This document shows, one piece after another, positions 8,428-9,105 of a stretch of 64,000 nucleotides of DNA. Source of the DNA: a virus. Taxonomy: Duplodnaviria; Caudoviricetes. Position 1 is the first letter of the stretch, and each line of letters opens with the position of its first letter. The stretch covers positions 160,001 to 224,000 of IMG/VR virus record IMGVR_UViG_3300029305_005547; one strand, given 5' to 3'. The notes beneath the pieces were generated by a model. That model saw nothing but the letters and a program-made list of their open reading frames with translations, was not told the origin of the DNA and did no database searches. The translations under genes were made by a program, and so were the position numbers.

Positions 8428-9105
8428 GGATTTTACGCGTAAGTAAAACCTCTTTAATTGCGGGAACGAATTCGTTATGTCTTTACTACTAAACTAAGAT
8501 AGTAATATACTTAGTGGCAATGGGTAACTCCAAAGGTATAGTAAAAAGGTAAAGAATAGAATCAATCCGCAGCGAAGATATAATCGTAAAAATAAAAAAA
8601 TAAGATTGCTCTTATTTTTTCCTATGCAAGGGCTGCTCGGGCTTGCACTGTCACCCGTCTGTTTAAGTGCTGTGGAGTGGCTAGTTCCACTTGGCTTTTG
8701 ATTCTACATAGGTTTTGTTTGGAGCAGCCTCATAATCACCACGTCCCAACCAATACTGCCGTATGGTGGTTAGCCTAGACGTTACGCCCCTAGGCCTGCG
8801 ATTCTTGTATACCGGTTCGTGTTGATACAGTGTGTAATCCCTTTTATATTACACTATACAAGATTAGGGTAAATAATAACTCCTTATGAACCGGACTGTT
8901 TTTATTATTTACACTAAAATATTATATGTTTGAAAATTTTAACTTTACGATTATATAACGTTCAACGACTATCGAAAGCATAACTATAGAGAAATACTAT
9001 AGTGAAGAAGCGAGTAGAGTAGGAGAAATCCGAAATAGGAGGCAATATTAATTTGGTAACAGAATTAATATTGAAGATATAGTCTAATATTTTTAACAAA
9101 ATATG
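8428..9105 (+). mobile_element. Group I intron 1 in terL (no endonuclease ORF; carries an insert in P6)
   Basis: P AATTGCGGGAA, Q AATCCGCAGC, R GTTCAACGACTA, S AAGATATAGTCT. P1 has U8427.G8437 (exon TTACGT with GCGTAA); terminal G9105. Splicing restores FT-C-TPGDLD. Confidence 0.92.
8594..8915 (-). ncRNA. Putative antisense structured RNA nested in intron 1
   Basis: Early-type promoter at about 8911-8935, terminator hairpin at 8594-8620, no ORF, GC-enriched, two H-type pseudoknots. Confidence 0.65.

Follow-up and report, generated by a model that had tools for sequence, protein, structure and literature searches.

The gene for the terminase large subunit (terL) of the jumbo phage described here is interrupted by two group I introns, and the first of these was found to hold, in the P6 slot of a functional-looking intron, a genuine, strain-specific cargo of 351 nt that contains no open reading frame (ORF) and is allelic with an HNH endonuclease gene. 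The window, i.e., the whole stretch of DNA that was analyzed, comprises 64,000 nucleotides and corresponds to bases 160001-224000 of a 278,849-bp IMG/VR virus record; the phage genome (~279 kb) has a GC content of ~32%. The cargo is best explained as a self-contained, early, antisense non-coding transcription unit that occupies P6 as an alternative intron cargo, a reading to which we assign a probability of roughly 0.55. As to its role, our leading guess is that the cargo acts as RNA, either in cis, as an antisense partner of the terL precursor that still contains the intron, or in trans, as an early RNA. That the ~320-nt RNA is functional, i.e., that an early non-coding RNA has come to stand in the endonuclease's place as cargo under selection, is offered tentatively, as a possible but doubtful extension of that reading.

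Intron 1 of terL and the slot in its P6 stem

The features of the interrupted gene on which the analysis rests are as follows.

7602 to 8427, plus strand: terL exon 1 (terminase large subunit), from tblastn to jumbo-phage terminases and from intron-less relatives that cross the 8427|9106 junction uninterrupted
8428 to 9105, plus strand: group I intron 1 of terL, 678 nt; its core elements can be aligned (alignment A1) with introns of relatives that lack the insert
8580 to 8592, plus strand: 5' arm of P6, 13 nt, complementary to 8944-8956 and located between the Q-like and R-like core elements
8593 to 8943, minus strand: P6-loop cargo, 351 nt, missing in relatives; contig L058 has an HNH gene in its place
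8944 to 8956, plus strand: 3' arm of P6, 13 nt, pairing with 8580-8592 and overlapping the upstream box of the minus-strand promoter
9106 to 10006, plus strand: terL exon 2, from intron-less relatives and from the comparison with L058

The terminase proved to be a remote relative of its counterparts in phiKZ-like and Bacillus jumbo phages, its best cultured match sharing 39% identity (tblastn), and genes for beta-like and beta'-like subunits of a multisubunit RNA polymerase (RNAP) are encoded in the phage genome. Direct reading of intron 1 revealed the boundaries expected of a group I intron, namely a U immediately before it and a G as its last base, and the joining of 8427 to 9106 restored a TerL that is matched without gap by the intron-less relatives L014, L015, L033, L034, and L038. 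With the Rfam group I model (RF00028), the insert-less homologous intron at L012:4797-5104 scored 79.8 bits over the full model, while the window's own intron 1 gave only a partial match of 15.6 bits; this weak score is attributable to the 351-nt insertion, on either side of which the L012 intron and the window core align.

The two arms of P6 form 13 perfect pairs out of 13 and enclose 351 nt, and in both the minimum free energy (MFE) and the centroid fold of the entire intron the stem seals the insert off as a domain of its own. The relatives L009-L013, whose TerL is 83% identical, carry a 277-nt intron at the same site with a P6 stem of just 7 bp. Among the relatives, P6 consists of a hairpin of 7-9 bp or else holds an endonuclease gene, and in alignment A1 their introns leave out window positions 8578-8956 and match on both sides. 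The assignment of intron 1 and of P6 made in an earlier note on this DNA is correct, as is its statement that P6 encloses about 350 nt. The note had also recognized the slot as the usual place of an endonuclease gene, and in the 98%-identical strain L058 an HNH gene lies exactly there.

An exact look-up of the exon-1 product retrieved 23 contigs (JGI, ENA, and Logan). Two of them, L055 and L057, which come from other assemblies and are the two readable contigs that span the insert, were 100% identical to the window across it (over 4750 nt and 2257 nt), and the same gene spacing was observed in two more samples, one from ENA and one from JGI; every copy of the cargo that was seen is identical. 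The 90% cluster of the exon-1 product contained one other full-length allele, that of L058, which is 97.9% identical to the window up to 8577 and from 8955 and bears a different cargo of 846 nt in between. This segment (L058:3977-4822, equivalent to window 8578-8954) holds a sense-strand HNH_3 gene of 263 aa with its own P6 stem of 8-9 bp. Its GC content is 27%, versus 48% for the body of the window's cargo, and tblastn and tblastx comparisons of the two cargoes detected no similarity at either the DNA or the protein level. The ORF-less cargo was represented by 19 contigs and the HNH cargo by 2. As judged from these sequence comparisons, the 351-nt insert is lineage-specific, and the intron content shifts among strains, with the P6 loop behaving as a swappable slot.

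The second intron of terL was located by an Rfam match at 10908-11185 (82.2 bits), with an HNH_3 gene (10085-10906) just 5' of the match. The strains L060 and L061, 95-97% identical, have window position 10006 fused to 11202 and lack both intron 2 and this HNH gene; the segment 10007-11201 is polymorphic too within the phage population. The HNH protein of intron 2 and that of L058 share 34% identity over 133 aa. Other positions of group I introns in terL, near residues 128, 237-245, and 278, were noted among L019, L022, L024/L052, L016, and L046, and some introns of this group contain large ORFs located 5' of the ribozyme core and not in P6. JGI sample 3300018495 was observed to hold both the window's phage (L055) and the insert-less relative L013 of 83% TerL identity, and since the two share one sample, co-infection and the exchange of introns or cargo are plausible.

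The cargo is devoid of any start-codon ORF of at least 34 aa on either strand, as the earlier note had stated, and every frame is interrupted by stops, the longest stop-free stretches being 60 aa on the plus strand and 55 aa on the minus strand. The six longest such stretches had no match in Pfam or PHROGs at E values up to 10, back-translated scans of viral and bacterial contigs detected no relatives of the cargo, and a phmmer search of 1.84 billion representatives with the 55-aa minus-frame stretch returned zero matches. The longest minus frame is closed by two TAA codons and one TAG codon, so that no single stop-codon reassignment would open it. As for an intron-borne endonuclease, neither an ORF nor an endonuclease domain was found on either strand of the cargo. 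Of the outcomes that the note itself had named as fatal, two were looked for and neither was encountered: no match to a decayed protein gene was obtained, and the domain is missing from the introns of the relatives and is thus no ordinary peripheral domain.

A predicted early transcription unit on the minus strand

The elements assigned to the minus strand of the cargo, several of them predicted, are listed below (coordinates in window numbering).

8912 to 8950, minus strand: early promoter, with upstream box 8950-8941, 13-nt core 8931-8919, 6-nt spacer, and +1 at G8912
8590 to 8912, minus strand: predicted non-coding transcript of ~320 nt, deduced from the promoter and the hairpin; no ORF
8800 to 8912, minus strand: AT-rich 5' domain, with fold z scores of -2.47 (minus strand) and -0.59 (plus strand)
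8912-8902/8879-8869, minus strand: 11-bp hairpin of the 5' domain
8863-8855/8811-8803, minus strand: 9-bp helix of the 5' domain, enclosing a 7-bp hairpin (8854-8848/8838-8832)
8894-8888/8818-8812, minus strand: possible 7-bp loop-loop pairing of the 5' domain
8621 to 8800, minus strand: GC-rich 3' domain (~53% GC), fold z -0.23 on the minus strand and +0.14 on the plus strand
8594 to 8621, minus strand: A/U hairpin with a 12-bp stem and a U-rich tail, bordering P6 and regarded as a weak candidate terminator for both directions

The early promoters of the Bacillus jumbo phage AR9, which are read by the injected virion RNAP, consist of a 13-nt AT-rich core followed by six bases and a G at +1 (PMC5312081). 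The site at 8931-8912 fits this published consensus, AAATATATATTAT-N6-G (PMC5312081), with two mismatches in the 13-mer and a G at +1, in good agreement with the early-type minus-strand promoter proposed in the earlier note, and the start was placed at G8912 on the basis of the AR9 rule. At up to three mismatches, the 20-nt motif 8931-8912 occurs four times in the window, against 0.04 occurrences expected. About 25 sites of the same motif in the genome precede genes with a Shine-Dalgarno (SD) sequence and an ATG, and the promoter in the insert is the sole good match without an ORF of at least 40 aa inside the following 350 nt. Over about 45 nt it is nearly identical (E = 5.5e-7 within its own genome) to the promoters at G000 153762(-) and 167153(-), one of them 1.8 kb away, both of which drive SD+ATG genes.

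A subfamily of these promoters, comprising G000 7859(+), 153762(-), 167153(-), and 168950(-), was observed to share an extra conserved box of 10 nt about 11 nt upstream of the AT-rich core, which may serve the virion RNAP as an UP-like element. In the insert, this box and the 3' arm of P6 overlap, and the 5' arm of P6 represents an inverted copy of the box at the other end of the cargo, an arrangement that is hard to explain unless the pairing was selected or arrived with the insertion. As a separate observation, three early promoters preceding unrelated genes (window ~7040-7110(-) and ~43600-43680(-), and G000 ~153650-153720(-)) have in common a leader of ~60 nt with two short palindromic blocks, which may be a conserved 5' UTR element.

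The hairpin at 8594-8621 lies ~320 nt downstream of the promoter, adjoins the 5' arm of P6, and has a U-rich 3' arm; folding energies of -9.8 (minus strand) and -7.2 kcal/mol (plus strand) were calculated for it. The earlier note had placed a terminator at 8594-8620, and a hairpin with a U-tract is indeed present there, but its stem is nearly all A-U and it was missed by the terminator consensus scan, which demands at least three G-C pairs. The element is symmetric, with an A-run before it and a T-run after it. On the plus strand, the same hairpin could weakly terminate terL transcription within the intron.

Taken together, these elements suggest the following course of events. The virion RNAP would start early in infection at G8912, on the strand opposite to terL, as indicated by the promoter match, and the product would be a non-coding RNA of ~320 nt, the lack of an ORF and of any protein signal being observed and the RNA itself predicted. 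Transcription would probably stop at the A/U hairpin abutting the 5' arm of P6, weak as this terminator is. A working hairpin would bring antisense transcription to an end before the ribozyme core and exon 1; the unit itself sits entirely in the loop under the perfect 13-bp P6 stem. With the antisense transcript ending short of the core, the intron should still be able to fold and splice and the terminase should still be made, as the predicted fold and the intact core and junction suggest.

The composition of the cargo sets it apart from its surroundings. As the earlier note had pointed out, the body is enriched in GC, with 48% over the 248 nt of 8621-8868 versus 30-35% in the flanks and ~32% in the genome, and the fraction of purines on the plus strand is 0.44 in the body versus 0.58-0.64 in the intron arms. 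The composition and the opposite purine bias are consistent with a unit that has the minus strand as its sense strand.

The folding analysis gave a more differentiated picture. The z score of -2.84 for 8594-8935 is largely due to the terminator hairpin; once this hairpin is left out, the minus and plus strands of the body score -1.30 and -0.52, respectively. The AT-rich 5' domain alone was more stable than its shuffled counterparts, and this just on the minus strand (z -2.47); the GC-rich 180 nt are no more stable than shuffled sequence, and the MFE values of the two strands are about equal (-84.6 vs -85.2 kcal/mol). As for the two pseudoknots described in the earlier note, all four of the complementary pairs proposed there exist, three of them being perfect (7, 9, and 8 bp) and the fourth, 8705-8712/8621-8628, being complete only on the minus strand through a G-U pair (C-A mismatch on the plus strand), and the small hairpin between them is present at 8773-8778/8791-8796. 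The helix 8733-8741/8764-8772 requires a G-U pair on the plus strand, and the strand-specific wobble pairs thus point both ways. Perfect stems of at least 7 bp numbered 5, versus 1.9 in dinucleotide shuffles (23 of 500 shuffles reached 5), and crossing stem pairs numbered 2, versus 0.46 (48 of 500 reached 2), so that both counts are near chance expectation. The geometry of the first pseudoknot, in which the loop 8894-8888 would pair with 8818-8812 directly abutting the 3' strand of the next helix, appears sensible. The double-pseudoknot architecture of the putative RNA is not established by these models.

A scan against Rfam 15 at gathering thresholds, which had been proposed in the earlier note together with the remark that the family was not recognizable, identified no family in the cargo, including tmRNA, GIR1, HEARO, riboswitches, and ribozymes; permissive Rfam scans at E values up to 10 yielded only noise, and no tRNA or tmRNA was found in the cargo by ARAGORN. 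The homologue search likewise proposed there retrieved the identical copies in L055 and L057 but no diverged homologue in any collection searched. In particular, blastn in distant mode against 50,697 INPHARED phage records gave just a 33-nt AT-rich chance match, the cargo was absent from five related jumbo genomes by BLAST and by the covariance models R1 and R2, and it was found in 0 of 38 related terL loci, which were taken from IMG/VR and metagenomes. Scans with exact 22-32-nt words gave no match in IMG/VR, JGI metagenomes, or GTDB genomes, a search in which records very near the window were possibly hidden. The phage's own genome contains no second copy of the body; the promoter part alone recurs. 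Two GC-rich spots of the window, at ~40.8-41.0 kb and 49.4-49.8 kb, were considered as sister RNAs and rejected as ordinary coding genes. Assignment of the cargo as a TnpB/IscB omega RNA was rejected, PF07282 having no match in the 279-kb genome, and so was a retron or DGR template RNA, given that PF00078 had no match and the genome holds no second copy of the body.

Alternative explanations of the cargo

In arriving at the reading as an early antisense unit, we counted in its favour the matching polymerase genes of the phage, the promoter that alone lacks an ORF, the insulation by P6, and the fold of the 5' domain on the minus strand only. Counted against it were the lack of a homologue, the near-chance number of stems, the mixed wobble pairs, the symmetric A/U terminator, and the identity of all copies. 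Should the RNA be functional, it might serve as an antisense timer, delaying or setting off the processing of the terL precursor by pairing with its P6 loop, or it might act in trans as a decoy for a host system.

The strongest competitor, to which we give a substantial minority share of belief, holds that the cargo is a functionless recombination scar or passenger. An early-promoter copy together with foreign GC-rich DNA would have replaced or preceded an endonuclease gene and would be tolerated only since the 13-bp stem keeps splicing intact; the insert might be transcribed, with an inert RNA as the result. Such an origin would be in keeping with a cargo that is a singleton among the collections searched, whose GC-rich part lacks a fold signal, whose promoter nearly duplicates others that the genome contains (one lying 1.8 kb off), and which resides in an intron whose cargo is in flux between strains. 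It is less easily reconciled with the ends of the insert, perfect 13-bp inverted repeats formed in part by the promoter's upstream box, which look shaped and not accidental, nor with a hairpin placed exactly at the edge of P6. Furthermore, the ORF-less allele was found on 19 contigs versus 2 for the HNH allele, and decay in an AT-rich phage would not yield high GC.

A plus-strand role, in which the insert is a peripheral extension of the intron, i.e., an enlarged P6 that aids or regulates folding of the ribozyme, and the promoter match is incidental, is considered unlikely. The relatives all splice with a P6 hairpin of 7-9 bp or with an endonuclease gene in its place, and the 45-nt promoter match lies far beyond chance (E = 5.5e-7 in the genome). 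The plus strand is certainly transcribed within the terL precursor, most helices are symmetric, the MFE is nearly equal on both strands, and one helix even requires a plus-strand G-U pair; nevertheless, the plus-strand fold z scores range from -0.5 to +0.1, the purine bias runs counter to the intron's, and no riboswitch or other Rfam family was matched.

The cargo could also be read as a decayed protein gene, e.g., the remnant of an antisense homing-endonuclease cassette that has degenerated but kept its promoter and terminator. The layout is gene-like in that the promoter is followed by an SD-like hexamer (23 nt past +1) and by a terminator, the slot holds an endonuclease gene in the sister strain, and nuclear group I introns are known to contain endonuclease genes in antisense orientation (PMC9548176). 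Against these points, Pfam, PHROGs, the back-translated scans, and phmmer were all empty, the cargo is unlike the HNH gene of L058 in DNA, in protein, and in GC content (48% vs 27%), and the two TAA codons and one TAG codon are rescued by no single stop reassignment. We regard this origin as highly improbable. A chimeric insertion introduced by metagenome assembly, suggested by the metagenome-assembled nature of the record and the compositionally foreign body, is effectively refuted by separate JGI assemblies identical over 4750 nt and 2257 nt across the insert, by the same spacing in an ENA sample and another JGI sample, and by the phage's own promoter type within the insert.

Significance and relation to known systems

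In strains that are ~98% identical, the same P6 slot holds either an HNH gene or an ORF-less unit in reverse orientation, each with its own closing stem. If the unit produces a working RNA, phage group I introns can ferry RNA genes besides endonuclease genes; introns would then be carriers of non-coding genes, and their cargo would be exchangeable in modular fashion. With both alleles occurring naturally, the effect of each cargo on the intron and on the phage could be compared directly. Even if the unit is inert, it provides a clear snapshot of the loss or replacement of an endonuclease in the life cycle of an intron.

Phage group I introns may loop an endonuclease ORF out of a peripheral stem, as exemplified by the td intron of T4 with I-TevI in P6, and the cargo that introns of this group carry in phages is nearly always a gene for a homing endonuclease. 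The cargo of the window shares with endonuclease-in-P6 introns such as the L058 allele the intron family, the host gene, and the insertion point, as well as the closure by P6 that lets the core fold. It differs from the HNH cargo of L058 in being ORF-less, in running in the opposite direction, in its GC content (48% vs 27%), and in having no sequence in common with it. In twin-ribozyme introns, the lariat-capping ribozyme GIR1 and an endonuclease gene lie in a peripheral loop, GIR1 being a sense-strand element that serves the mRNA of the endonuclease. A second structured RNA nested within such a loop of a group I intron would be common to both, the fold in the window being predicted; unlike GIR1, the window's cargo is antisense and matches neither GIR1 nor any other ribozyme family.

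The g190 system resembles the present one in that a jumbo phage with multisubunit RNAPs has an AR9-type early promoter within an intron of a late gene; g190 is protein-coding, whereas the unit in the window contains no ORF. Antisense homing-endonuclease genes of nuclear group I introns are likewise independently expressed units opposite to the intron strand, a property predicted for the unit described here; they encode His-Cys box proteins and reside in eukaryotic rDNA introns, whereas the present unit is prokaryotic-viral and non-coding (PMC9548176). The omega-RNA of IStron/TnpB elements offers another case of a non-coding RNA, predicted in the present instance, that is co-resident with a group I intron; it lies on the same strand at the end of the element and depends on TnpB, whereas the genome of the window yielded no match to a TnpB-type domain (PMC10690162).

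Phage cis-antisense RNAs with defined start sites have been detected by ONT-cappable-seq, 20 in all with 4 in phiKZ (PMC10914365). The common element is a transcript that is driven by a promoter and lies antisense to a phage gene region, as predicted for the unit in the window; those RNAs overlap coding sequence, whereas the predicted RNA of the window is confined to an intron loop that the relatives do without. Owing to this confinement to the insert loop, the RNA would be complementary only to sequence that arrived with it. What is new here relative to these systems is the non-coding antisense nature of the cargo, as predicted, together with its allelic relation to an endonuclease gene.
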